Positions 32,180 to 47,645 of a stretch of 64,000 nt of DNA are shown piece after piece. The notes below the pieces were generated by a model. That model was given only the letters and a program-made list of their open reading frames with translations. It made no database searches and had not been told where the DNA came from. Where the stretch lies: the NCBI GenBank assembly GCA_965248535.1, contig CBDFJR010000005.1, positions 1,024,001 to 1,088,000 of the forward strand, read 5' to 3'. The stretch is from Phormidesmis sp. (lineage in GTDB: Bacteria > Cyanobacteriota > Cyanobacteriia > Leptolyngbyales > Leptolyngbyaceae). Both the position numbers and the translations under genes were made by a program. The number at the start of each line of letters is the position of its first letter. Position 1 is the first letter of the stretch.

Positions 32180-32412
32180 TTTCGGTCGGTTTATTCAAAG
32201 CATTCTTTCGCCCGTGCGCTTTTGGTAGGGATGCCCCACAGGGTACGATCGCTCTACTGGAGCAAGAAACTATACTAAAGATAACGTTGCTCAACGCCCA
32301 CAAGATTATCAAGCTGGACACGATCCTGGATTAGCTTCAGCCGCGTTGAAAAGAAAGTTATTGGGTCGGAACGTTGGCTAATTGGGGGTATGTTCTACTG
32401 GGTGGTGTGAGA

Positions 32413-32748
32413 TTAAGCGATCGCATAACCCGTATGGGGTCGCACATTGGCAGGATGAAAGCCTAACACAATCTGATCTTTTGGAATTCCTGCATTGACG
32501 AGTTCGTGGGTCACACCGTCTTCGGTTTCATCCCGTTGCACCCAAATTTTGCCGTCAATGATGTCTAAGTGAATCAAGCACCCGTGAACGCGAGTTTTGC
32601 GATCCCAGCCTAGGGTGATGAGGATATAGCTATCGTGGGTTTCGTCAAAGACGGGTTTGCAGATCAGTTCTCCGTGGGAGTAGGGAATTTGGGTGTAGGG
32701 AATCAGAATATCTTTGATGAGTTGGCGGTAGTGGGCTAGTTTTTCCAT
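32413..32748 (-). CDS. xisI: XisI protein
   Basis: HLDIIDGKIWVQRDETEDG...GIPKDQIVLGFH. Confidence 0.92.
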   Translation of the reverse strand: MEKLAHYRQLIKDILIPYTQIPYSHGELICKPVFDETHDSYILITLGWDRKTRVHGCLIHLDIIDGKIWVQRDETEDGVTHELVNAGIPKDQIVLGFHPANVRPHTGYAIA

Positions 32749-33152
32749 TGCAGAATGACCTCTTGTTCAGCGTCAAATACAATCAGCTTGAGATTTTCAT
32801 CTTCAATCATCAGTTGTCCGATCGGTTCCTCAAATAGAGAATTGAACACTATATCGTTCACAGCCATGTAGAGCTTATAGTCTGGGTAAGTTCGACGCAT
32901 GACAGCGCGATAGATGGCATACTGCCCAATGGCATCACGGAAGGCTTCCATCTCGGAAGCACTGATAAAACTTTTAACCTCAACGGCGATTTTCTCTTCT
33001 GCGCGTGTTGCCACGATCAAGCGTTTTGCACCCAGGTCAACATACATATCTTTCCGTCCCCAGCGTAGGTGAAGTGGGTCATGCGTAATGATCCAGCCAT
33101 CTGTGGTGAGTGCTTGTTTGACAGCATCATGGTAGAGGTCAAAGGCTGGCAT
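32736..33152 (-). CDS. xisH: XisH protein
   Basis: HDAVKQAL..DGW.ITHDP, DLGA, KIAVEVKSF and AIGQY motifs. Confidence 0.92.
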   Translation of the reverse strand: MPAFDLYHDAVKQALTTDGWIITHDPLHLRWGRKDMYVDLGAKRLIVATRAEEKIAVEVKSFISASEMEAFRDAIGQYAIYRAVMRRTYPDYKLYMAVNDIVFNSLFEEPIGQLMIEDENLKLIVFDAEQEVILQWKN

Positions 33153-33206
33153 ATTGTTTCATTTAGGATTTCGTCGGCTAGCCTATGGTTATCCATGAAT
33201 GTCTCT

Positions 33207-33428
33207 CTAGGCTTTCAGTCGTTGACGTTGAGCAGAGACCACTAGCTCTAGCGCTTTGACTGCAATGTCTCGTTTGCCTCGGTATTCGATGATTTCGGGC
33301 TGTGCTGTCTTGCTGCCCAAGCTAATTTTAACTTCACTATCGGCGCTAATGACATGAATATGTGACGATCGCTTACCGTCGAAGTAGATGACCGCCCTAA
33401 GACCATCTTTTCGTAACACGGTTGGCAT
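33207..33428 (-). CDS. DUF4160-like small protein, possibly degenerate
   Basis: MPTVLRKDG...HIHV. The usual DH.PPH motif is altered. Confidence 0.55.
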   Translation of the reverse strand: MPTVLRKDGLRAVIYFDGKRSSHIHVISADSEVKISLGSKTAQPEIIEYRGKRDIAVKALELVVSAQRQRLKA

Positions 33429-33769
33429 GTTTTCTCTAGTGCGATCGCGCCTGCCTAAATGGGCGATCGTAAGTCCCTATCATCCATCTGCGGAGGTACG
33501 ATCGCTGTCATAGCGGAGAGGTGGAATCGCTACTAGAGCAAGAAACTAGGTATCCCTATTTCTTAAAGAATGGAAAATAATCACCCATTTCTAGAGACCG
33601 TAGGGAGTCAGGTTTCTGAAATTGGACTTTTTCCTCTATCCTTTACTAAATATCACTACCTATTCTTGCCTTGAGTTCCAACTTTGCCCTGATACCTTCT
33701 GTAAAACTTCCATAGCAGACTAGAATGAGCTAACCACTTACAAAACTCAAACACTTATTTCTGCTGGAT

Positions 33770-34201
33770 ATGGAGGATTATCAAAATGCTTTCTCAGAGC
33801 GTCACACTGATACCGAAGCATTATGTAACTCTGGGAGGAAAATAGCTGCTATGCACTTCGGCGGTATTACAATCGAATGTTTACTCAAGGCAATGATCGT
33901 TGCCTCGTTATCAAAAAGCGTGTCTAAGGAATGGAAAACAGATTCTGTTGATCCCGGACACACTATCACTAACCCCGGACACAGTTATGGTGAAGCGCTT
34001 AAGCGACACAACCGATTGAATTCTAGGATTCAGAAGTTTCCAGAGGTAATGAAATGGCTCCAGGATATCGAATGTCCAAACCAGCATTTCATAGATATGC
34101 GCTATTCTTGCAACGAGCCTGATGATAAGAGCTATAAATGTTGGTTAGACTCATATCAGCGGCTCAAAGGATGGTTACAGAAACAAGCCAATCAACTTTA
34201 A
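33770..34201 (+). CDS. HEPN-like domain protein
   Basis: D.EAL..SGR..AAMHFGG..IECLLKA, GHS and MRY motifs typical of the HEPN fold. Confidence 0.7.
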   Translation: MEDYQNAFSERHTDTEALCNSGRKIAAMHFGGITIECLLKAMIVASLSKSVSKEWKTDSVDPGHTITNPGHSYGEALKRHNRLNSRIQKFPEVMKWLQDIECPNQHFIDMRYSCNEPDDKSYKCWLDSYQRLKGWLQKQANQL

Positions 34202-34210
34202 AGAGGGGAG

Positions 34211-36910
34211 ATGCAGGAAACTTGGCAAGAAAGACTGAAGCAGCAACTTACAACCCAGTACATAGGAAGATCCCAGGACTGGGTTGGTATAAACATTTCT
34301 ACATCTGGCTTACTGAATTTAACTATCGTGAGCGATAGTTTTTCTGATTTGTCCATACCTCAGCGTAGGGAAATCATATTAAATTTCTTACAACAGTCAC
34401 GAGTTTCTCTATCCCCAGGTTTTTTATCTCTCTATACGCCACAAGAGGCTGAATCTCTTAATCTGTCGCAACCACAAGCTGTTAATGGAGACTCAGTACA
34501 CACTTGGCAAGATTTAGCTTTACAAGCAGCTAACCCCCAAAATCAATCACAGCCTGCTCAACGTGAACCAAGTGTTCCTCGAACTGTAACATTTTATTCT
34601 TTCAAAGGGGGAGTAGGTCGAACTACAGCATTAACGCATGTTGCATGGATTCTTGCGTTACGTGGTCGCAAAATTGTAGCTGTTGATTTGGATTTGGAAG
34701 CGCCTGGATTAAGTACAGCGTTTAACTTGAATCCTCAACCAAAGTATGGAATTGTCGACTATTTTTATGAACGTTCCTATTTGCCAGAGGGGGTAGAACC
34801 TAATATCTCAGTAGCTCAAATATTCGGTGAAGTTAAAATACCTAACGCTACAGGAAGATTGTTTGTCGTTCCTGCTGGAACTCTTGACCTCGACTATATC
34901 TCTAAAGTTGATGATCTACGAGCAACTACCGTTACTGATACTGGCGACAACCTCTGGTCTATTTTTAGCCGCGAAATTCAAGAACAGTTAAAACCAGATA
35001 TTCTATTAATTGATTCACGAACTGGAATTAATCAATGGGGGGCTTTATCACTACTACAAGCAGCAGATGAAGTAATCGTATTTTTATTTCCAAATGAGCA
35101 AAATCGTCAGGGAATTAGTTTACTTCTACAATCACTTCAATCCTTTAGAGATCTATCTATAAATTTTGTATTTACTCCAGTTCCTGATACTACCGAAGTT
35201 GGGATGACTAAGGTAAAAAGGATTTGGAAGTTCTTATATGAAGCGGTTAAGAATAGAGCGAGTGAAGATGATGACACAATTGAAGATTCATCCAGAGAAA
35301 GTGAGTCCGATTTAGATGACTCATTTGCCGAAGTAGAGCCATTAGTGGTTCCTTACTTACCCCCAATTGCTTTAGCTGATAGTTATCCTGTACCAGCACT
35401 TCTAGATTACTATACTCGAATTGCTAACCTGATTGACGAAGAAACTGACGAGCTTCAACGGAAAACTATCTTAACTGGTTCAAATCGTCGATGGAGCATT
35501 ATTAAAAACCTTCAATTTCCTGAAGTTAATGCGGCTGACCCACAGCAAGATCTGAGTTTGCTATTTCAGCGAACCACTGATTTTGAAAAATTTCTAGACA
35601 ATACTAACTGTCTTATTAGAGGACGGAAGGGAACTGGTAAAACCGCTCTGTACTGGCTTTTACTAAAACATAACAAGGTTGCTCAACAATTGGCTCATGG
35701 TCGGTTAGATGACACCATTTGCTTTTCTGGTCATGGTAGGTTTCATGAGAGTCGTCCATCGCGTGACGAGTTCCAAGTGATTCACAGGGGTCTACAAGAA
35801 AATAATGGCTCATGGGAAGCATTCTGGAGAGCTTATTTACTGTTTAGGATCGTCAAAGAAAATGGCTTCAGCTTCCCCAAAGGTAGAAAAGGGGAGAAGT
35901 TTACTGAGATGAAAAGAATTATTAATGAGCTGCCTGGTGAAAGATGGCAGTATGAACACACTCAAGATCTGCTTCATCTATCCAGCGACTCTAATCTGCT
36001 TCTCATTGTCAAGGATGCTTTAGATACCTTTAACGAGCAGGTACAAAATCAATCCAAAACACTGTGGTTTCTGTATGATGATTTAGATGAAGATTTTCCT
36101 GAAAAAGATGAGGTAAGGCATCAAGCTCTGATTGGCTTATTTCAACTTATTCAAGCTTGTGACGCAAGAAAGATAATATCGATTCGGTTCAAGATTTTCT
36201 TAAGAGAAGATATTTGGAATCGTTTAAGTTTTGACAATAAAAGCCATTTCAATGGACGTGATCTTCTTTTACAGTGGAATCGGGTTGATTTTCTTAGACT
36301 TGCACTTCGCCAAGCAACCCAGTCTAAGGAATTCAAGAGCTTAGTAGATCGGTTTTCTCCTGTCGAAAGCATTGATCAAGCCAGTGAGGAAGCTGTTGAT
36401 CGAGCGTTAGAACTTCTCTGGGGAAGCCGTCGCAGATCAGGCACCAAAGCTAAGTATGTAACAAGATGGGTCTATGAGCGTCTTACAGATTCAAGTAGTA
36501 CTACCTTTCCTCGCAGTTTGAGCATTTTGTTGAGAGGGGCAAAAGAGCAGGAACTAACCTATGAAGGACAACCCTCAAAACAAACACCCACAGACCGTTT
36601 ATTACGAGGAACCTCTCTTGAGATTGGACTAAAGAAAGCCTCGGAAGAGCGTTGTCATGCAGTTAGAGAGGAATATCCTGATTTGAGAAAATTCTTTGAC
36701 TCTCTTAAAGCGATGCAAGCTCTATTATCAAAGGAAGAATTGCAAACTATATGGCAAGAATCTGCACAAAATGTCTCATCGGAATATGATGATTTTTCGG
36801 ATTTACTGAGCGAGATTGGTATCGCTGAATGGCGTGAGAAGGATCAGCGCTATAAATTTGCGGACATCTATGTATATGGGTTTGAGATGATTCGTAAAGG
36901 TGCAGTCTAG
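34211..36910 (+). CDS. Multidomain ATPase: BolA-like N-terminus, ParA/MinD-type (KGGVGR) domain, second P-loop ATPase (Sll1717-like)
   Basis: IVSDSFSDLS..QR; SFKGGVGRTT, DLDLEAPG, IDSRTG; acidic linker; GRKGTGKT, FLYDDLDE, KIFLREDIW. Confidence 0.8.
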   Translation: MQETWQERLKQQLTTQYIGRSQDWVGINISTSGLLNLTIVSDSFSDLSIPQRREIILNFLQQSRVSLSPGFLSLYTPQEAESLNLSQPQAVNGDSVHTWQDLALQAANPQNQSQPAQREPSVPRTVTFYSFKGGVGRTTALTHVAWILALRGRKIVAVDLDLEAPGLSTAFNLNPQPKYGIVDYFYERSYLPEGVEPNISVAQIFGEVKIPNATGRLFVVPAGTLDLDYISKVDDLRATTVTDTGDNLWSIFSREIQEQLKPDILLIDSRTGINQWGALSLLQAADEVIVFLFPNEQNRQGISLLLQSLQSFRDLSINFVFTPVPDTTEVGMTKVKRIWKFLYEAVKNRASEDDDTIEDSSRESESDLDDSFAEVEPLVVPYLPPIALADSYPVPALLDYYTRIANLIDEETDELQRKTILTGSNRRWSIIKNLQFPEVNAADPQQDLSLLFQRTTDFEKFLDNTNCLIRGRKGTGKTALYWLLLKHNKVAQQLAHGRLDDTICFSGHGRFHESRPSRDEFQVIHRGLQENNGSWEAFWRAYLLFRIVKENGFSFPKGRKGEKFTEMKRIINELPGERWQYEHTQDLLHLSSDSNLLLIVKDALDTFNEQVQNQSKTLWFLYDDLDEDFPEKDEVRHQALIGLFQLIQACDARKIISIRFKIFLREDIWNRLSFDNKSHFNGRDLLLQWNRVDFLRLALRQATQSKEFKSLVDRFSPVESIDQASEEAVDRALELLWGSRRRSGTKAKYVTRWVYERLTDSSSTTFPRSLSILLRGAKEQELTYEGQPSKQTPTDRLLRGTSLEIGLKKASEERCHAVREEYPDLRKFFDSLKAMQALLSKEELQTIWQESAQNVSSEYDDFSDLLSEIGIAEWREKDQRYKFADIYVYGFEMIRKGAV

Positions 36911-37131
36911 ATGGTGTCATGCACTTTTGAATCCAATACTCATGAACCATCTGACCATCAATATTACAAAGGGAGTCAGGTGAAATCTGATTAACGTGTC
37001 TGGGAACCGCTCGCAATCTCGCGCTAATCGTCGAAACCGCGACATCTAGTGCAAAACTGCGTTCTCTTACCCAGTCCCTTGAGAGGAGAAACTCTCCTCC
37101 ATTACTGTGCTCTCTACTACCCATCTTCTGC

Positions 37132-37521: not shown

Positions 37522-37902
37522 GGGGCTGTAACGGTTTCGACAGGTTGGCGAACGTCACAACGTGATTCAGGTCGAGAGCGAGTCCACTCTCGTAAATATC
37601 GGCTCAAAACACAGTACATGCGAACAACATTGTACCCTTCGCTCGTAAAGCAGTCACTGCCTAAAAACCCCTAGCGGTTCGAGCGTCTACGATTTGACAC
37701 CGTTAAGGATCGTAGAACAACCCCAACGGTCGCTCTAGACGATCGCCTCAAGTCGGTTTTCTAGCTAAGACAATACTTGAGAATCCTCCCGTTCGGGATA
37801 ATGAACGGTTCCCGCTTTGAGGACTAGAGAAGCTAAACCTGTGAATGAGCGGTGTGCTAATACCCAATTTGGACACGGGTTCGACTCCCGTCAGCTCCAC
37901 TA
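37522..37902 (+). ncRNA. ssrA: tmRNA
   Basis: GGGGCTGTAACGGTTTCGAC 5' end, tag ANNIVPFARKAVTA* at 37620-37664, GGTTCGACTCCCGTCAGCTCCA 3' end, and TATAAT at 37504. Confidence 0.97.
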
Positions 37903-37909
37903 AAAACCA

Positions 37910-37942
37910 AAAAGGAGGCTCTTAATCAGAGCCTCCTTTTTT
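37910..37942. terminator. Bidirectional intrinsic terminator after ssrA
   Basis: AAAAGGAGGCTCT-TAATC-AGAGCCTCCTTTT. Confidence 0.85.
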
Positions 37943-40262: not shown

Positions 40263-41495
40263 CTACGGGGTTCCTCTAGGGGGGGTGAACCCCGATCGAT
40301 TTAGCCGTTCTTCGATCTGCCATAGCAAAGCAAAGTCTTCTTCAGGTAGAGTCGCGATCGCCGCTTCTTCTAAAAAGCTAAACGCTTGACGAAACTCTTG
40401 AGGAGTGGCAGAGATCGGGGCCTCTAAATGGCAGGGAACAATCCGTTCAAAGTCCCACGTTGCCACCTGATCTGCCCACGCTAACGTTTGTTTGGGCGAT
40501 CGGTTGAGAATGATTGTTTGCAGAATCGGAGCTACCAACAGTCGTCCGTTTCCTCGCAGAGCCTCAAACGATCGCTGCCAGTCTTCTCGCCATTTGAAGG
40601 GGAACAGTCCAAAATAGGCTTTTTTGGAGCGATCGCAGGCTGTTAGCGCATCGCGTAAGACTGAGCCAAGTCTGAGAGGCTCTAGCGCGCCGGGGCGAAA
40701 ATAAAACGCAAACAAAGCCATGCGCCACCAGCCTTTGCGACGATTAGCTGGCGTGTCTTTGACCTGATCAGACGCAGAATCTTTGGCATGAAACAGCAGT
40801 GGATAGGGGTCAAGCTGCACGATCGCGGATGGATCTTCAGGAACAGAAAGAACTGAATCGGTGACCAAAAGCGTGCCCGATCGTCGATGGAAAAATGCCA
40901 CCTCACCAAACGAACCTGCCCCTAAATCAATGGTGAGAATGGCATAGTCAAAGTCGTGATAGAAGGGCGTTTTGCTGCTATCTTCTGGTAGGGTTTGAGT
41001 GCGCTGACCCGGAAACCCAAGCCAGCTTAACGGCAGATCGATCGGAAAGCTCCACTGATGCGGCGCAACAAAAATCTGGGCATTAGGAAACTGTCTCGCA
41101 AACGGCCCGACAAAGACTTTGTGTTCTAACCCCGATGAAGTTGGCAGAACAATATATCGCACGTCACCGTGGTCTGCCACCAACTCCTTGACCAGTCGAA
41201 TACATTCCAGAGTCGGCGCAACGGGGGCATAGACCAACAATCCTCCTGCTTCGAGTTTGATCACCGTCATCCGAATCGGCACAACGACATAAAAAATGCC
41301 TTGGATCTGGTCAAACGTCCAAATCGTGTCTTTGAGAAGTTCTGTGCGAAGGGTTTGGCGCTGACCGTAGGGATAGAGCGGCACCAGTTGCCAAAACCGC
41401 CACGACCAATCATCAGAACGACTCTTTGAGTGATTGCCTAATTCTGTCTGGTTGGTGACACGCTTCATAACCCGCTCCGCTTTGCCTGATCTCAT
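40263..41495 (-). CDS. DUF4336 family protein (metallo-beta-lactamase-like)
   Basis: VPIRMTVIKL, GLEHK, TLLVTD and IVPCH motifs; start uncertain. Confidence 0.85.
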   Translation of the reverse strand: MRSGKAERVMKRVTNQTELGNHSKSRSDDWSWRFWQLVPLYPYGQRQTLRTELLKDTIWTFDQIQGIFYVVVPIRMTVIKLEAGGLLVYAPVAPTLECIRLVKELVADHGDVRYIVLPTSSGLEHKVFVGPFARQFPNAQIFVAPHQWSFPIDLPLSWLGFPGQRTQTLPEDSSKTPFYHDFDYAILTIDLGAGSFGEVAFFHRRSGTLLVTDSVLSVPEDPSAIVQLDPYPLLFHAKDSASDQVKDTPANRRKGWWRMALFAFYFRPGALEPLRLGSVLRDALTACDRSKKAYFGLFPFKWREDWQRSFEALRGNGRLLVAPILQTIILNRSPKQTLAWADQVATWDFERIVPCHLEAPISATPQEFRQAFSFLEEAAIATLPEEDFALLWQIEERLNRSGFTPPRGTP

Positions 41496-41790
41496 CCTAT
41501 CAATCTCTGTCTCAACCGAGGCTAGCGCCTGCCTGGAATGGAGCAGATCGATACCAGATTAGTACAGATGAACGAGTCGGGGTTTATGAACCGCACGATC
41601 GTTGAGTTTAGCCAAGATTTACGCGCCGTCTCACCGGGTGCAGTGATCTCCTATTCTCGCTATCACAAAGAGACGATGACGAGTCGCAGAGTCTTCCCAG
41701 CGACATCGTTTTTTCCATTGTTTGGTCAGAAATAGATTGTCTGGCACGAATTATGTTCTAACAGATCTGAGGCATCTCAATCTGCCTACA

Positions 41791-42090
41791 TCATGAGGCA
41801 CCAAAGTAGGCCGCGCCTTCTGCTTCAATGCTTGCCTTGCTCTTGCGACCGCCATCACCAGATCTTCGTGCAGCCCTGTTCGCTAGACTAATAGGTATAT
41901 CACACCAAATATCTTGCCCACTCTGACTACTCCAGGGTGAAGAACCGACATAAATGTTCTTGCCAATATCAGTTGCATAATACACTCCCTGGGGAACACG
42001 AGCTTGAGCAGGGAGAAGCTCTGAAAATAAAGTAATCGTAGTTACGATAGCTGTAATTGCAATACCCGACACTGAAATCTTTATTGTCAT
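41791..42090 (-). CDS. Hypothetical secreted protein
   Basis: Signal-peptide-like N-terminus ending PAQA. Confidence 0.55.
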   Translation of the reverse strand: MTIKISVSGIAITAIVTTITLFSELLPAQARVPQGVYYATDIGKNIYVGSSPWSSQSGQDIWCDIPISLANRAARRSGDGGRKSKASIEAEGAAYFGAS

Positions 42091-42222
42091 TAGATTTGTA
42101 CGTTTAGATAGATTGAGCTGAATTTGGCTTTTGCGTATTTGCTTTGTCAGTCGGAGAAAATCGGGGAACAGTTAGATATTCTCACTCCCTATTTTTCAGT
42201 CACGCCTCTAACAAGAATTTAA

Positions 42223-42289
42223 GAGGATGTCTGAGGAGTTAAAAATTATGCCAACCGTCTGACTATCTCATCATTTCTCAGACATCCTT
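42223..42289. mobile_element. 67-bp MITE or deleted IS with terminal inverted repeats
   Basis: GAGGATGTCTGAG...CTCAGACATCCTT, flanked by TAA on both sides. Confidence 0.65.
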
Positions 42290-42354
42290 TAAGGCTACTT
42301 ACGATCGCACCCCAATGATTCATTCTTAACTACACCCCCAGAGATAACTCAGCA

Positions 42355-42441
42355 GGCTAACGTTCGCAATCACCGGACATCGATAACTCCAGCTACCAAC
42401 TAAATAATATCCAAAGTTCCGGTGCATTGCGGTTGTTGCAC
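42355..42441 (-). other. attC-like integron cassette recombination site
   Basis: Minus strand GTGCAAC-aaccg-CAAT(G)CACCGG...CCGGTGATTG-cgaac-GTTAGCC; 87 bp with an extrahelical base. Confidence 0.75.
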
Positions 42442-42457
42442 TGCTGGCAACACACGC

Positions 42458-42751
42458 TTAGCCAGCTTGAGCCTGGACGACTTCACTCAACGCTTCATCG
42501 ATCACGGCATCACTGACACCACGACGCTTGAGGCTAGCAACCAACGCAGTGACCGTCTCGCTTTCAAACCGTTCCAAATCAACCCGCAAACCCTGACCAA
42601 TGTATGCCCGAATCAATGGCTGGTACCCAGAAAACCCTAACAACGGAGCAACCCGTTTCAGATCTTCCACGACATCTTCTGGAATCCGAATCGTCACACT
42701 GGTCATGGGTCGATTGCGATTAAGTCGTTGCTTCAGGGTCTCAACCTTCAT
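42458..42751 (-). CDS. BrnA/CopG-like antitoxin
   Basis: TSVTIRIPEDVVEDLKRVA...GYQPLIRAYI; overlaps the BrnT end. Confidence 0.8.
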   Translation of the reverse strand: MKVETLKQRLNRNRPMTSVTIRIPEDVVEDLKRVAPLLGFSGYQPLIRAYIGQGLRVDLERFESETVTALVASLKRRGVSDAVIDEALSEVVQAQAG

Positions 42752-43034
42752 AGTCTGCTCTCTCCTGGCTAGTTGCTTTGCGTGCTGAAATAATCCGAAT
42801 GCTCTCTGCATCCTGCTCAATGTGAACCACATAAAGCAAGTTCCAGCGAGCATCTAGCCCAATCACAGCGTCTCGCGCTTCATCGTTGCGACTGGCATCG
42901 ACAAGGAAGAATGGATCGAAAAAAGCCTCAGCCGCCTGCTGAAAAGTAACCCCATCATGATTGATCGGATTAATTCGCGCCTTCTCTTCATCCCACGAAA
43001 AAGTAATGCTATTGAGCACAAAATACACGTTCAT
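42741..43034 (-). CDS. brnT: BrnT-family toxin
   Basis: FSWDEEKA..N...H.GVTF..A...F.DP and IRIISARKAT..ER. Confidence 0.9.
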   Translation of the reverse strand: MNVYFVLNSITFSWDEEKARINPINHDGVTFQQAAEAFFDPFFLVDASRNDEARDAVIGLDARWNLLYVVHIEQDAESIRIISARKATSQERADYEG

Positions 43035-43041
43035 AGTGCTC

Positions 43042-43080
43042 ATCATAGAGAAGACGTATGTACAGTGTCAATACGTCTTC
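43042..43080 (-). promoter_or_regulatory. brnTA promoter with overlapping palindromic operator
   Basis: TTGACA-18 bp-TATGAT on the minus strand; inverted repeat GAAGACGTAT/ATACGTCTTC at 43050-43080. Confidence 0.7.
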
Positions 43081-43128
43081 CTGAAATCTAGGCAATGTCA
43101 ATTGATTGGCACGACCTGAAACGAAGCA

Positions 43129-43214
43129 GCACAACGTTCCCAATTAGCGGCGACAGAGATGACTCAACCGAAGCACGGAAACCCTCTTCGTCCGCTGCAT
43201 TGGGGTTGTTATGC
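43129..43214 (-). other. attC-like site
   Basis: Minus strand GCATAAC-aaccc-CAATGCAGCGG...CCGCTAATTG-ggaac-GTTGTGC; 86 bp. Confidence 0.75.
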
Positions 43215-43383
43215 GTTGCTTGACACAACCGATCGCTGCTTCCACTGCTGCAAGCCGTTCCTCTAAAGAAGTGTTAGTTGCCATTCGAGTTTTCCATAAT
43301 TAATCGTTTTTATCTGAAGGATAATGAGTCAGAGAGAGTTTGCCTATCCTTCAGACTTTGTAAAAGTCTGTACAAAAGAGTTG

Positions 43384-43900
43384 TTATGCTGCGCTTTTGC
43401 ATCTCTCAAGCTTTAGTGCGATGCGAGAGAAACAAATTCCCCCAAACCACAAACAGATTGGCAAATGTCCTTTTGGGGCTGAAGTAGCGTAAATCATATT
43501 ATCAAGATTGTAGTTAACTTGCTTCCATCCAACAGCAATCGCAAATTTAGCCCATTCTGTTTCACGTTTCTCTCCGTCAAGTTTTCCACCAACATCTAGG
43601 TAAATGTTTTTCTGAATGCTGAAACCAAAAAGACCATTGCTGTACTTCACCCACAGTTGGTCAATCGTAAGAAGATCTGTGCAGGGAATTTGGTCAATAT
43701 CTTGCCTGAATATATTCTCATCCCATTGACCGTCTGCCAACCGCCAAGCATCTGAAGGATCTCGTGACCACAGTTTTAAGAGCAGTTGTCTCATTGTCCT
43801 ATCCGCCTCTGACCAGTTTTGTGCCTTAAGTAAATCTCTCAGCCGCGTGTAATCAATTCCTCTGGCTGAACGTAGATTGCCGCGAGAAAGTTGGCTAACA
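43384..43900 (-). pseudogene. GUN4-domain fragment with no start codon
   Basis: In-frame upstream extension LRSARGIDYTRLRDLLKAQNWSEAD, then IPCTDLLTIDQLWVKYSNG.FGFSIQK and APKGHLP. Confidence 0.75.
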
Positions 43901-43984
43901 GTAGCTTTTAATCATCCGCTGCAAGGAGTTTATTATACGGCGGTAGGACATCCTAAGTCGTAAGTTCAAAATAACATTGAGAAC

Positions 43985-44767
43985 CTACTTTGCCAACTCT
44001 TGAGCAATTGTTGTGCGCCAGTAATTCAGCTTATTTGAATCGGTTGGGGAGTGTCCTATCAACTTTTTCCACGCACCACTAGCAGCGCCGCTCGGATGAA
44101 TAAAATTTAGGTGCTTGATACCTAACTGCAATTGGTCTACAGCACTACCAGCTACTTTTCCCCAAGTTACCACAGCAACTGGTTGCACCACAGCTAATTC
44201 TGGTTTGATAAGTTGTAGAAATTTCTGCCGATCGGCATCTGGCAGTTTAATTCCAACATAACGCTGTTCTGGATTACAAACCCATATCTTCAGTAAGTCT
44301 GTTAGGTAAACTCGATATCCTAATTCGAGAAGCACCTGAACCATTTCAAAATATAGTTTTGTACGCCTCAACTCTTCACGAGAGCCTTTGTGGTGTAAAC
44401 CATAAGGTATACCAACTACTAATTGTTCATGGTCGCTGTCATTTTTGGAGTCCTGACCAATAATAGCAATTGTCGGTTTGTCATTTCGTCCATCGTCCAA
44501 TTCCATGAGACTCGGCAAATCCACAGCAATGACAGGAGATTCTTGGTAGATGGATCGAAAAACATCATTTGTGGACTCAAAAAAGCCCCGGCGTGTAAAA
44601 TGCAAAGGCCAACCTGGTTGATCAAAAGTAGTACCAATATCTTGGTACAGCTTCTCTAACTCTTCTATAGTTGTATCAAACACTGAACATAATAATTCAC
44701 AAAGCTGTTCAAATTCTTGAGCTTTGAATTTAGAGAATAAAAGACGTGTTGAAGTTACCATACACAC
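43985..44767 (-). CDS. Uracil-DNA glycosylase superfamily-like protein
   Basis: IIGQD motif A, YLTD..K, VVTWGK.A and HPS motif B. Confidence 0.65.
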   Translation of the reverse strand: MCMVTSTRLLFSKFKAQEFEQLCELLCSVFDTTIEELEKLYQDIGTTFDQPGWPLHFTRRGFFESTNDVFRSIYQESPVIAVDLPSLMELDDGRNDKPTIAIIGQDSKNDSDHEQLVVGIPYGLHHKGSREELRRTKLYFEMVQVLLELGYRVYLTDLLKIWVCNPEQRYVGIKLPDADRQKFLQLIKPELAVVQPVAVVTWGKVAGSAVDQLQLGIKHLNFIHPSGAASGAWKKLIGHSPTDSNKLNYWRTTIAQELAK

Positions 44768-45505
44768 TAATTAAGCTCAAAATCATCCCTGTTGAGATTT
44801 TCACAGTCCTCAACTCAAGGTCAAAACGAATAGCGGCTGATCTCGTGCCTCACAGACAATTTTAGAACATTGCCTAAATAGAGGACATACAGCCGTGTAA
44901 CTACTATTTCTGCCGTTTGAACTCCTATCAAACAGGATAAATACTCCTCTCAAGGAAATTATGCCGTATGGAAACCGGATAACGCCCATTATTTTAGGAA
45001 TTATACTGAATCTCCACAGGATAACTCTCCACTTTTGGATACTTATACGGAATGGCGCTCAGACTTCTCGATTCTAAGGGAGCCGCGAGTAAATTGTCTC
45101 GTCCCGATGAATCAGTTATGGCGCTGAGTCGATCGCATCCCTGCCGTTGCTCGACTGGAACATAAATCAGGGAGAAGTTACGATCGCCCCCCTCTCTTTC
45201 CCCAAAACCCGATCGCCCCTCCTCCCCCAAAAAAATCACCATTCCAAAAAACAAAAAACTCTAGTACAATACACCGCAGTGATGGAGTTGTGCCCCGAAG
45301 CCTGATTTCTCAGATCAGACTCCGAGGTCTTCCATCCCTAGTTAACACGACTAACTCAGGAGGCGTTCATGATTGTACACCGTCGGCTTTGCTATGGGAT
45401 CTTGAAAGGCTGGAATCAAGATCCTGCATACAGGTTTTCCCCCAACCCAATGTCTGAGAGATCCGTGTTTTTGTCCTCTTTAACTTAACTAAGAGGACAA
45501 AAACT

Positions 45506-45877
45506 ATGGCAGTTAGGACGATCGTGCCTAGCTCGATTTCGTTCACCATTGAGTTGCGATGCTCAATCGAAAAGCGATATCGAGTCAGTGTGACGTTAGA
45601 TTTACAAGAGCGTTATCTCTTTGTACCGTCTGGCATTCTCGTGAATGTTAGCGACAGCATTGAAGAGTTTGTCTCAGAACTGAGTGAAATCGCGTCTAAT
45701 CAACTGGCATTTCTGAAATGGGATGGCACGAGTGATTTGACCACAGAGTATCAAGTTGTTCGAGTGTTGCCCGGTTATCAGGTTGAACGTTCTTTAGTGA
45801 AATTCAACATTGTTCTGGGTAGTGGTTCACTGATTCAAGTAGAGGAGTTGCACAACAAAACGACGATTCAACTATAA
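45506..45877 (+). CDS. Hypothetical protein
   Basis: 123-aa ORF with GAGG SD; no family recognised. Confidence 0.55.
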   Translation: MAVRTIVPSSISFTIELRCSIEKRYRVSVTLDLQERYLFVPSGILVNVSDSIEEFVSELSEIASNQLAFLKWDGTSDLTTEYQVVRVLPGYQVERSLVKFNIVLGSGSLIQVEELHNKTTIQL

Positions 45878-45926
45878 GAAGTTGGGCATTAGGGAACTGT
45901 GAAGCAATCCTTGAATAGTCTTCAAG

Positions 45927-47645
45927 TCAAACAGGCTGAGAGGGTTGTTTCGCAGGTTCAGTTGCTCTCCCAGTTCGAGCAATCCATTTAGTGGCGATCG
46001 GCATTCTCCACCCAGTACCAAACGCCCGATCGGTAATCTTCAATCCCGGTGGTGCCTGACGACGCTTGAATTCCGCGATCGTTACGAGTTTAACCACGCG
46101 ATCGACAACAACTTGTTCATGTCCGGCAGAAACAATAGTGGTGATTGACTGATGTTGATGAACCAAGCGATCGAGAATATCATCTAAGATCTCATAGTCT
46201 GGCAGTGAGTCTTGATCAACTTGTCCCGGCTTTAGCTCGGCGCTCGGTGCCTTGACAACAATGTTGGTAGGAATGATGTGAGAACCCAGCCACTTGCAGA
46301 TCGAGTAGACGCGGGTTTTAGGCACATCGGCGATCGCCGCAAGTCCGCCGTTCATGTCACCATAGAGCGTGCAGTATCCGACTGCCATCTCGGATTTGTT
46401 GCCTGTAGAGACCAACAAATAGCCAAATTTGTTAGAGATTGCCATCAGCAGAGTGCCTCGAATTCGAGACTGAAGATTCTCTTCGGCAACGCCAAACTCT
46501 GTTCCCGTGAACAATGGATCTAGAGCTTGATCGTAGCTTTGCATGAGAGGTGCGATCGCCAAGGTCTGAGTTTTAATCCCAATATTGTTGGCAAGTTCTA
46601 ACGCATCGTGAACGGAATGATCAGAACTGTAGGGCGACGGCATCAGAACACCTAAGACATTCTCAGCACCGAGGGCAGCAGCAGCGATCGCGGCCACCAA
46701 TGCCGAATCAACGCCACCACTCAAGCCCAACACCACTTTAGAAAAGCCACACTTGCGCGCATAGTCTCGCACACCCAACACTAGGGCTGACCAGATTTCA
46801 GCGTCGTCACAGTCAGGGGCAGGAGTCACAACACTGGGTAGAAAATCTTTGGTTTTGGGACTGTAGTCAATCGTCACCCAATCTTCTTCAAAAGCACGAG
46901 CGCGACAAACCAGAGTTCCGTAGCGATCGACGACAACACTGTTGCCATCAAAAATTAGATCGTCATTGCCGCCAACTTGATTGACATAGACGATCGGTTG
47001 ATTAAACCGCACGGCTCCATGGTGCAGCATTGCTTCTCGCAGTCGCTGTTTGCCGACGGTGTAAGGAGATGCCGACAGATTGATTGTGAAGTCAACGCCT
47101 TGTTGAGCGAGATCGGCGATCGGGTTCAGCGCATACGTCCGTTTGCCCCAAAATTCTTCGTCGTTCCAGAGGTCTTCGCAAATGGTGACCCCGATCCGAA
47201 CCGACTGACCTAAATGCTCTAGGATGAACTGGTTTGGCTCATTTCCAGGCTCAAAATAGCGGTCTTCGTCAAACACGTCATAGGTAGGCAACAGACGTTT
47301 GTGAAAAATCTGGCAAATCTGCCCTTGTTCTAAAAGAGCGACGCTGTTGAACAAAGGTTTGCCGCCATTTTGCAGCGATCGCGGATTTGGTTCTACGGTT
47401 CCCACTAAGACTGCGACTTCGGGCGGAATTTGTTGGGCCAATGCTAGTAGCGTCTGAGTCATCGCTTCGACAAAACTGGGATCAAGCAACAAATCTCGCG
47501 GCGGATAGCCACACAGCGACAACTCTGGAGTCAACAATAATCTCACGCCTTCTCTCGCGGCTCGTTGGGCAGCTTGCAAGATTCGTTGGGCATTTCCGGC
47601 TAGATCCCCGATCGTGGGGTTGAGTTGAGCGATCGCAATTTTCAT
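45927..47645 (-). CDS. nadE: Glutamine-dependent NAD+ synthetase
   Basis: Nitrilase domain (PEL, ICED) plus GLSGGVDS, TGNKSE, PSAEL and EFKRRQ. Confidence 0.97.
   Translation of the reverse strand: MKIAIAQLNPTIGDLAGNAQRILQAAQRAAREGVRLLLTPELSLCGYPPRDLLLDPSFVEAMTQTLLALAQQIPPEVAVLVGTVEPNPRSLQNGGKPLFNSVALLEQGQICQIFHKRLLPTYDVFDEDRYFEPGNEPNQFILEHLGQSVRIGVTICEDLWNDEEFWGKRTYALNPIADLAQQGVDFTINLSASPYTVGKQRLREAMLHHGAVRFNQPIVYVNQVGGNDDLIFDGNSVVVDRYGTLVCRARAFEEDWVTIDYSPKTKDFLPSVVTPAPDCDDAEIWSALVLGVRDYARKCGFSKVVLGLSGGVDSALVAAIAAAALGAENVLGVLMPSPYSSDHSVHDALELANNIGIKTQTLAIAPLMQSYDQALDPLFTGTEFGVAEENLQSRIRGTLLMAISNKFGYLLVSTGNKSEMAVGYCTLYGDMNGGLAAIADVPKTRVYSICKWLGSHIIPTNIVVKAPSAELKPGQVDQDSLPDYEILDDILDRLVHQHQSITTIVSAGHEQVVVDRVVKLVTIAEFKRRQAPPGLKITDRAFGTGWRMPIATKWIARTGRATEPAKQPSQPV

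Follow-up and report, generated by a model that had tools for sequence, protein, structure and literature searches.

The DNA analysed here, a stretch of 64,000 nucleotides from a Phormidesmis sp. contig (CBDFJR010000005.1; hereafter the window, at its full length), carries a two-gene operon that belongs to a family of candidate defence systems already catalogued as PDC-M28 and HINPO. Gene 1 encodes a small protein with a predicted HEPN fold. Gene 2 encodes a protein of three modules: an N-terminal domain (N-domain) that looks BolA-like, a ParA/MinD-like nucleoside triphosphatase (NTPase) with an Arg in place of the usual Walker A Lys, and a second P-loop ATPase of the Sll1717 family (C-module). 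A sequence-only reading of the locus had described two tightly linked genes, and this description was accurate. The junction reads TAA-AGAGGGGAG-ATG, and the Shine-Dalgarno (SD)-like core GAGG lies inside the 9 bp, an arrangement that argues for translational coupling and a single operon. Scans for promoters and terminators in the window gave fewer sites than in shuffled sequences. The same reading implied that the system is new, and this did not survive: the family is already in PADLOC (2023), in NCBIfam, and in a preprint of October 2026 that defines HINPO. Since the family is already catalogued, the locus is useful for putting that family to the test and does not represent a new kind of system. 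The features are collected in Table 1.

Table 1. Features of the operon and its surroundings (window positions unless another contig is named)
Feature	Position	Strand	Description
Gene 1	33770..34201	+	open reading frame; 143-aa HEPN-fold protein (modelled); PADLOC PDC-M28A-like; position of the preprint's PA-HEPN1
Intergenic gap	34202..34210	+	AGAGGGGAG, 9 bp, SD-like core
Gene 2	34211..36910	+	open reading frame; 899 aa, three modules; PDC-M28B and PDC-M28C fused
BolA-like N-terminal domain (putative)	34211..34525	+	aa 1-105; AlphaFold2, Foldseek, hhalign; predicted docking surface for gene 1
ParA/MinD-like NTPase, KGGVGR (ConB2) type	34577..35347	+	residues 123-379; NF047398, Pfam
ParA Walker A, KGGVGRT	34604-34624	+	aa 132-138
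ParA motif DLDLEAPG	34685-34708	+	aa 159-166
ParA motif LLIDSR	35003-35020	+	motif search
Acidic linker, SEDDD...DSFAE	35261..35332	+	aa 351-374; variable among homologs
Sll1717-family P-loop ATPase (putatively STAND/ORC-CDC6-like)	35525..36907	+	residues 439-899; NF047389, PDC-M28C
C-module Walker A, GRKGTGKT	35621-35644	+	aa 471-478
C-module Walker B-like, DDLDE	36077-36091	+	aa 623-627; large C-terminal region follows
Low-GC, HIP1-free block carrying the operon	33450..37000	not assigned	GC content, HIP1, same-genus comparison
XisI/XisH pair and weak DUF4160 open reading frame	32413-33428	-	Pfam 1e-40 and 7e-52
tmRNA gene, one-piece	37522-37900	+	tag ANNIVPFARKAVTA; ~600 bp downstream of gene 2
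Hairpin after the tmRNA gene	37909-37941		perfect 14-bp inverted repeat
Weak paralogs of the gene 2 ParA part	G000:C5:2299080-2299610 (L002); G000:C2:2460579-2461163 (L003)		open frames of 272 and 523 aa

All three PDC-M28 models of PADLOC, each applied singly, match proteins encoded together in the operon: PDC-M28A matches gene 1 (E = 2.4e-8, residues 2-65), and PDC-M28B (2.3e-40, aa 114-379) and PDC-M28C (4.3e-31, aa 458-899) match gene 2. The archetype is a three-gene operon, whereas here B and C are joined in one polypeptide. The locus differs from the archetype in two further respects: the PDC-M28B match begins at profile position 119 and leaves the N-domain uncovered, and PDC-M28A covers just the first 65 residues of gene 1. 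PDC-M28 is a "phage defence candidate" of PADLOC-DB v2.0.0, a concept set out by Payne et al. (10.1101/2024.01.29.577857), in whose main text the name "M28" does not occur.

The operon also resembles the HINPO systems defined by Li, Burroughs & Aravind (bioRxiv, 22 October 2026; 10.64898/2026.10.19.760177). In the preprint's main text, a PA-HEPN1 gene lies upstream of a ParA gene whose product has an extra domain at its N terminus, and the ORC-CDC6/STAND ATPase is encoded downstream or is "in several cases directly fused"; its ConB2 ParA is recognised by a PG motif that follows sensor-1 and by an Arg where Walker A usually has Lys (10.64898/2026.10.19.760177). Both marks are found in gene 2, the Arg in KGGVGRT and the PG in DLDLEAPG. 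By the same main-text definition, gene 1 takes the place of the upstream HEPN gene (Z 11.3 to 1ufb, 9-bp gap), and the neighbourhood is conserved at 19 of 20 loci, or at 29 of 30 when a hidden Markov model (HMM) of gene 1 is used. The likeness covers the small upstream HEPN gene, a ConB2 ParA with an extra N-terminal domain, and a second ATPase, downstream or fused, which in our locus is putatively ORC-CDC6/STAND-like; the PDC-M28 and HINPO systems alike are known from predictions. According to the preprint's main text, HINPO is enriched in filamentous or multicellular bacteria. The differences concern the N-domain, which in our locus is best matched by BolA and not by a Pol-beta nucleotidyltransferase, and which has no detectable profile likeness to the N-domain of split-type systems. 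The words "BolA" and "PADLOC" occur nowhere in the preprint's main text, and a search of the literature on KGGVGR, PDC-M28, sll1717 and HINPO gave no relevant paper besides the preprint. We conclude that the locus is a further member of an already catalogued, computationally defined family, fused forms included. What our models add is a putative BolA-like assignment for the N-domain and a predicted docking site for the HEPN protein.

Gene 1 has no match in Pfam or NCBIfam. Its family is small and consists almost entirely of unnamed proteins (321 clusters when grouped at 90% identity, and 98 representatives when grouped at 50%); among the 120 matches listed, those named by organism are all cyanobacterial but one, which is called "bacterium". 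The sequence-only reading had seen HEPN hallmarks in gene 1, and the AlphaFold2 model, made from an alignment of 46 relatives, agrees with it (pLDDT 92.9, pTM 0.88). With this model, Foldseek placed HEPN proteins at ranks 1-7 and 9-11, with nothing at E <= 0.001. Structural re-alignment of 243 of the 244 top Foldseek chains gave HEPN proteins as all ten best matches (Z 8.5-11.3). The best was 1ufb (Z 11.3, rmsd 2.6 over 116 aa); others were sacsin HEPN (10.4), 2hsb (10.2), 1o3u (10.1), 2q00 (10.0), 1wol (10.0), 4nqf (9.0) and the HEPN toxins 8xeh, 8yuf and 8xdj (8.5-8.8). The first chain without a HEPN title, the nucleotidyltransferase-like 3c18, came eleventh (Z 8.0); chains that are clearly unrelated began at Z 6.2. 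Helical bundles can score such Z values by their arrangement alone, a known caution with the alignment tool used, but the clean separation in Z and the consistent HEPN family argue against such an artefact. Profile comparisons gave fainter signals. Two of the 46 relatives match Pfam HEPN directly (best 6.2e-5), and the gene 1 profile aligned with seven PF05168-type HEPN open reading frames (ORFs) from related genomes at P = 0.011 (reversed control, 0.61), with H71 paired with the His of "tHxL" and R111-Y112 with "RYP". There was no signal against a mixed alignment of 16 HEPN sequences (P = 0.61), and nothing meaningful among PDB sequences (best E 0.094, a designed protein). As modelled, gene 1 is a HEPN-fold protein.

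Is gene 1 a nuclease? The sequence-only reading had found no obvious RxxxxH, and an Rx4-6H motif is indeed absent: R111 is followed by YSCNEPDD, with no His 4-6 residues after it, and no His is conserved there in the 46 relatives. However, the same alignment has H71 and Y112 invariant, and R11, H29, E36, K40, R111 and W125 conserved in at least 90% of its rows. Such strong conservation of polar residues argues for a functional site. H71 and Y112 might stand in for the Rx4-6H site, and we consider gene 1 a likely RNase-type effector with a non-canonical site made up of R111-Y112 and H71, as judged from residue conservation.

Both ATPase modules of gene 2 and the acidic linker had been recognised in the sequence-only reading, and each is present. 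The ParA module scores 171.9 bits against NF047398 (AAA_KGGVGR; cut-off 90) and also matches Pfam AAA_31 and CbiA; the C-module scores 142.6 bits against NF047389 (ATPase_Sll1717; cut-off 75). Both scores are above the curated cut-offs of NCBIfam, in which these are domain or subfamily names without a function, silent on the HEPN partner and on the BolA-like domain. The deviant Walker A motif that is canonical for ParA/MinD proteins reads KGGxGK[ST]; gene 2 has KGGVGRT, and all 22 fused and all 9 split homologs share this Arg. This substitution suggests a slow nucleotide-dependent dimerisation switch rather than a fast hydrolase. In the C-module, the Walker columns G/K/T and D/D/E are invariant in 15 homologs. 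Its sub-threshold Pfam matches among 15 members are to AAA_16 (14/15), NACHT (13/15), nSTAND3 (11/15) and ORC-CDC6-like (4/15), with best E values of 2.6e-4 for NACHT and 6.2e-4 for ORC-CDC6-like; the C-module profile found nothing significant among PDB sequences, where the P-loop of Cdc6 appeared at E 0.14. The Walker A and B motifs of the C-module are intact and are followed by a large C-terminal region; we take this module to be the likely sensor. The source genome also carries two weak paralogs of the ParA part (28-29% identity; Table 1), one of which (L002) is matched by PDC-M28B at 2.8e-11, from profile position 131.

It is the N-domain that sets our analysis against the preprint. The sequence-only reading had called this segment BolA-like, and structure and profile comparisons bear it out. 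The AlphaFold2 model, from 19 homologs, has a pLDDT of 78.7 (85-94 in the core) and the element order alpha-beta-beta-alpha-beta-alpha. The top named folds in Foldseek were the BolA proteins 4pug, 3tr3, 4pui, 3o2e, 5lci and 2dhm (probability 1.0, target TM 0.56-0.71, E 4e-3 to 1.5e-2); a related fold, the KH domain found in ribosomal protein S3, was also among the best matches. In an independent structure search of 48,161 chains, the BolA-like 3o2e came first (Z 9.9, rmsd 2.2, 77 aa), followed by E. coli BolA (Z 7.8), YrbA (7.8) and BOLA3 (7.7); the BolA-family entries with these scores are 2dhm (7.8), 5nfk (7.8) and 2ncl (7.7).

For profile comparison with hhalign we assembled motif-filtered sets of 17 BolA and 20 minimal nucleotidyltransferase (MNT) ORFs from 20 related genomes and the source genome, with reversed BolA alignments as controls. 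An N-domain alignment of 18 fused rows matched BolA at P = 1.3e-4 (reversed BolA, 0.77; MNT, 0.47), one of 22 fused rows at 1.1e-5 (0.76; 0.15), and one of 7 divergent fused rows alone at 1.5e-5 (0.51; 0.49). The match is in register across beta2-alpha2-beta3. Pfam BolA (PF01722) had no match in the whole of gene 2 at E <= 1, and the columns of the conserved BolA His residues (IHAL, QQHQ) hold no His in the N-domain alignment; we therefore describe the domain as BolA-like and not as a BolA. It shares with the BolA family (3o2e, 2dhm, 4pug) the order of fold elements and the in-register profile match; it differs in these two respects and in being fused to ATPases within a conflict-type operon. 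The N-domain was found in proteins of 269 clusters among 429 candidates; those listed are mostly ~815-909 aa long, with a few shorter, and the named ones are all cyanobacterial.

The preprint's main text assigns the domain that precedes ParA to inactive nucleotidyltransferases (10.64898/2026.10.19.760177), and an inactive Pol-beta-type enzyme in this position would sense nucleotides and be neither BolA-like nor a docking module. That assignment comes from structure searches with the preprint's own representatives (10.64898/2026.10.19.760177), and our searches contain one match that agrees with it, the putative minimal nucleotidyltransferase 1ylq (rank 17, Z 6.1, rmsd 3.7 over 75 aa); our model, moreover, comes from a shallow alignment of 19 rows. 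Nonetheless, BolA structures lead two independent searches, the profile test separates BolA from both MNT and reversed controls, and no hG[GS]...DxD nucleotidyltransferase motif is visible in the N-domain alignment. The JGI name "BcsQ/stress-induced morphogen", given to 2 of the 120 listed N-domain homologs, also speaks against a nucleotidyltransferase, "stress-induced morphogen" being the COG label for BolA. We regard the nucleotidyltransferase reading as unlikely for the fused type, whose N-domain looks BolA-like in our models, at odds with the preprint's label. Fused and split-type N-domains have no detectable profile similarity to each other (P 0.24-0.41), which would fit either deep divergence or a domain swap; look-ups in the ESM Atlas with both types gave no usable match.

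What might a BolA-like domain do in such a protein? A complex of gene 1 (46 rows) with residues 1-430 of gene 2 (22-row alignment) was predicted with an ipSAE of 0.78 (runs 0.79, 0.76 and 0.78), compared with 0.01 for the best of three controls. Of 157 solved complexes, 116 reach the corresponding mark, as do 2 of 215 mismatched pairs; these counts hold roughly here because custom alignments were used. The runs share at least 97% of their contacts, and the pLDDT of the partner is at least 87. On the gene 2 side, the predicted interface comprises residues 28-85, that is the sheet and helices of the BolA-like domain, and ParA residues 186-195, 231 and 235; gene 1 contributes residues 3-16 (helix 1), 41-49 (where helix 2 ends), 82-93 and 130-143 (the C-terminal helix). 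The interface takes in the near-invariant N-domain residues S30, T31, N36, T38, G70, F71 and E79. HEPN-MNT complexes exist, but we know of no solved BolA-HEPN complex, so it seems unlikely that the score comes from the model's memory. The prediction supports docking of gene 1 on the BolA-like domain of gene 2.

Predicted binding between the two products also fits a toxin-antitoxin-like addiction or stress module, in which the N-terminal part of gene 2 restrains a HEPN toxin, no invader is sensed, and the pair stabilises its carrier DNA or responds to stress. Tight coupling of two genes with the small HEPN gene first speaks for such a module, the HEPN-MNT toxins 8xeh, 8yuf and 8xdj are structural neighbours of gene 1, relatives occur on plasmids, and XisH/XisI and DUF4160 in the window are small accessory genes. 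The resemblance to HEPN-MNT pairs (8xeh, 7ae6) lies in a small HEPN protein and a small alpha/beta domain from the adjacent gene, with binding predicted in our case. The partner domain here does not look MNT-like by profile, however (hhalign P 0.15-0.49 against the 20 MNT ORFs), gene 1 lacks Rx4-6H, and gene 2 also bears two ATPase modules. A partner of ~900 aa with two ATPases, one of them putatively of the STAND/ORC type, exceeds the needs of an antitoxin, and the family was picked up by its embedding in BREX, DISARM or type I restriction-modification loci (10.1101/2024.01.29.577857). We consider an addiction or stress module quite unlikely.

The sequence-only reading had made conserved linkage of the two genes a test of its proposal, and the linkage is strong. 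In a sample of 401 cyanobacterial genomes from 156 genera, gene 1 is directly followed by the N-domain and ParA of gene 2 in 19 of 20 other genomes; 16 of these 20 also have the C-module, and 13 have both genes intact. The PDC-M28B model matches 51 of the 401 genomes at 1e-10; 29 carry the fused type, with frames of 873-930 aa, and 9 the split type, with frames of 457-474 aa and a full-profile match. With the gene 1 HMM, a small ORF was detected immediately before the ParA gene at 29 of 30 loci, the exception being cut by a contig end. Among the 29 are all 16 further loci checked: 7 fused loci whose HEPN gene was too divergent for the first search (E 1e-14 to 1e-20) and 9 split loci (E 1e-5 to 1e-7). 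The upstream small proteins of three loci (L045, L062 and L153) match PDC-M28A over almost the whole length of the model. A database protein of 842 aa (P0146) has a gene-1-like part (aa 1-111), a KGGVGR domain (312-522) and a partial Sll1717 match (653-779) in one chain; it could be a natural fusion of all three, or the gene call could have read through. On one contig (G056:C152; L031 and L045), a fused and a split system lie ~2-5 kb apart.

Some variant loci involve known defence genes. Three genomes that belong to a single genus (L030, L033 and L034; G204, G380 and G300) have a gene 2 that stops at the linker between ParA and the C-module, at 403 aa, and is followed by the A and B genes of PD-T4-2 (7e-159 and 9.6e-96). 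A sister genome (L032) has a full 888-aa gene 2 at the same site, and a 952-aa gene precedes gene 1 in all four. This is a clean replacement of the C-module by a known defence system. Among plasmids, 156 records have a match. A Nostoc plasmid carries a fused copy (31% identity, 97% coverage) whose start is overlapped by 4 bp by a 147-aa gene, with genes for a type I HsdR subunit and for a recombinase nearby. Split pairs are on plasmids of Calothrix, Agrobacterium, Ralstonia, Burkholderia, Paraburkholderia and Streptomyces, and the trio on a Burkholderia glumae conjugative plasmid is a full-length PDC-M28 archetype (A 1.9e-40, B 1.7e-131, C 3.6e-166). The phage collection that we searched with gene 2 gave no match.

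The operon is accessory. Gene 1 is present in 21 of the 401 genomes and 12 of the 156 genera, and in none of the 3 other genomes of the source's own family. The sequence-only reading had also described an AT-richer block without HIP1 sites, unlike its flanks. The first part of this is clear: the operon region has a GC content of 0.405, compared with 0.499 for the window, of which it is the deepest GC trough, and its z value is -4.3 relative to 1092 non-overlapping windows of 3141 bp (their minimum being 0.434). GC content at third codon positions (GC3) is 0.30 in gene 2 and 0.47-0.65 in the adjoining genes. The second part stands as an observation but carries little weight. The window holds 53 HIP1 sites (GCGATCGC), with 1.9 expected, and none between 33448 and 37969; yet the chance of finding no site in 3141 bp is P ~0.07, and a longer gap is found elsewhere, so that the absence of HIP1 alone is weak evidence. 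The longest HIP1-free stretch of the window is 40629-46330 (5.7 kb), and the gap at the operon ranks second. In five genomes of the same genus, the matches to the flanks (73-95% identity) lie on different contigs, and the stretch 32180-36900 is not found, short fragments aside. By this comparison, the operon and its small neighbours are strain-specific DNA at a rearrangement point.

This distribution bears on a housekeeping explanation, by which the proteins would serve ParA-type positioning, or BolA-type morphogenesis or Fe-S metabolism, outside genetic conflict. The ParA/MinD and BolA folds are most familiar from work on the cell cycle and on Fe-S biology, source annotations name homologs "ParA family", "BcsQ" or "MinD-like", and in one cyanobacterial family (L028, L036 and L038-L044) the operon lies directly downstream of groES-groEL, by our by-eye assignment. 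A housekeeping role nevertheless fits the patchy presence of the operon poorly, as it does the atypical GC content and the decayed and module-swapped copies. Furthermore, a genuine BolA gene is present elsewhere in the source genome, the His positions of BolA are not conserved in the N-domain, and Arg replaces the Walker A Lys. We regard such a role as highly improbable.

What, then, is the function of the operon? We think that it is probably a fused two-gene anti-phage or anti-mobile-element system of the PDC-M28/HINPO family, an assignment in which we have fair but far from full confidence. The sensor-effector system proposed in the sequence-only reading agrees with the PDC-M28 match, the immune role that the preprint predicts for this architecture, the linkage, the patchiness and the PD-T4-2 replacement; defence itself is the part that we infer. 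The context that points to defence is circumstantial: the replacement by PD-T4-2, the plasmid copy beside hsdR, and the missing block in the five same-genus genomes. The HINPO authors propose DNA sensing by the ORC-like part, multimerisation of ParA, and HEPN as a back-up effector (10.64898/2026.10.19.760177, main text). In our version, the HEPN protein of an uninfected cell would be held on the BolA-like domain and the adjacent ParA loop. The STAND/ORC-like module would detect a cue from the invader (DNA or protein), leading to ATP-driven assembly; the ParA switch would then change state, and HEPN protomers would be rearranged or freed into an active dimer. RNA cleavage by this dimer would cause growth arrest or aborted infection. 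We infer four steps of this scheme, namely invader sensing, the slow ParA switch, the BolA-like tether and RNA cutting by HEPN, from the domains and the models.

Several observations weigh against a defence system built in this way. The PDC systems are called untested in the main text of the paper that introduced them (10.1101/2024.01.29.577857), and the immune role of HINPO is a computational prediction (10.64898/2026.10.19.760177). The PDC-M28A match of gene 1 is partial, its profile likeness to classical HEPN proteins is weak, and a protein that lacks Rx4-6H may be no nuclease. The STAND/ORC assignment of the C-module comes from sub-threshold Pfam matches with none significant in the PDB, the score of the complex is a model confidence obtained with custom alignments and not a measurement, and the preprint's nucleotidyltransferase label contradicts the BolA-like tether. 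In one family the operon keeps its site next to groESL, which there suggests vertical descent more than mobility. Some copies are decayed: gene 2 is interrupted by a ~1.06-kb insert at L025, gene 1 has an in-frame TAG at L026 (G190) and is truncated at L043. At a further locus of the groESL-side family (L044), just a fragment of gene 1 (aa 33-79) is left beside groEL, followed by several further ORFs. Lastly, no known defence gene flanks the operon in the window, where its neighbours are XisH/XisI, a DUF4160-like ORF, the tmRNA gene and a downstream holin-family gene.

That ParA-type ATPases recur in prokaryotic immune systems is a recent recognition, and the locus is a compact two-gene version that combines a BolA-like domain with a docking site predicted for the HEPN protein, a putative ParA switch with Arg in Walker A, and an ATPase that is intact and putatively STAND/ORC-like. 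BolA-like versus inactive nucleotidyltransferase is a specific disagreement with the sole published description of the family. We propose, tentatively and with more doubt than conviction, that in the cyanobacterial subtype a BolA-derived module and not an inactive nucleotidyltransferase precedes ParA and holds the HEPN effector on the ParA-STAND ATPase. If so, this would be the first BolA fold recruited to an immune-type system, with a ParA switch that gates HEPN by direct tethering. Split-type systems would then have a different, or unrecognisably diverged, N-domain, implying domain swapping at that position.

The surroundings of the operon include some further features. The accessory block lies on the 5' side of the tmRNA gene, which is not the usual side for insertion of islands. 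We saw no direct repeats bracketing the block, no integrase and no nearby tRNA gene, the tmRNA gene being the sole RNA gene. Directly against the stop codon of gene 2 lies a multi-copy element of ~160-225 bp (window 36906-37130), which has three more partial copies in its own genome (84% identity) and many in one genome of the same genus (G403), and which may be a repeat resembling a miniature inverted-repeat transposable element (MITE).

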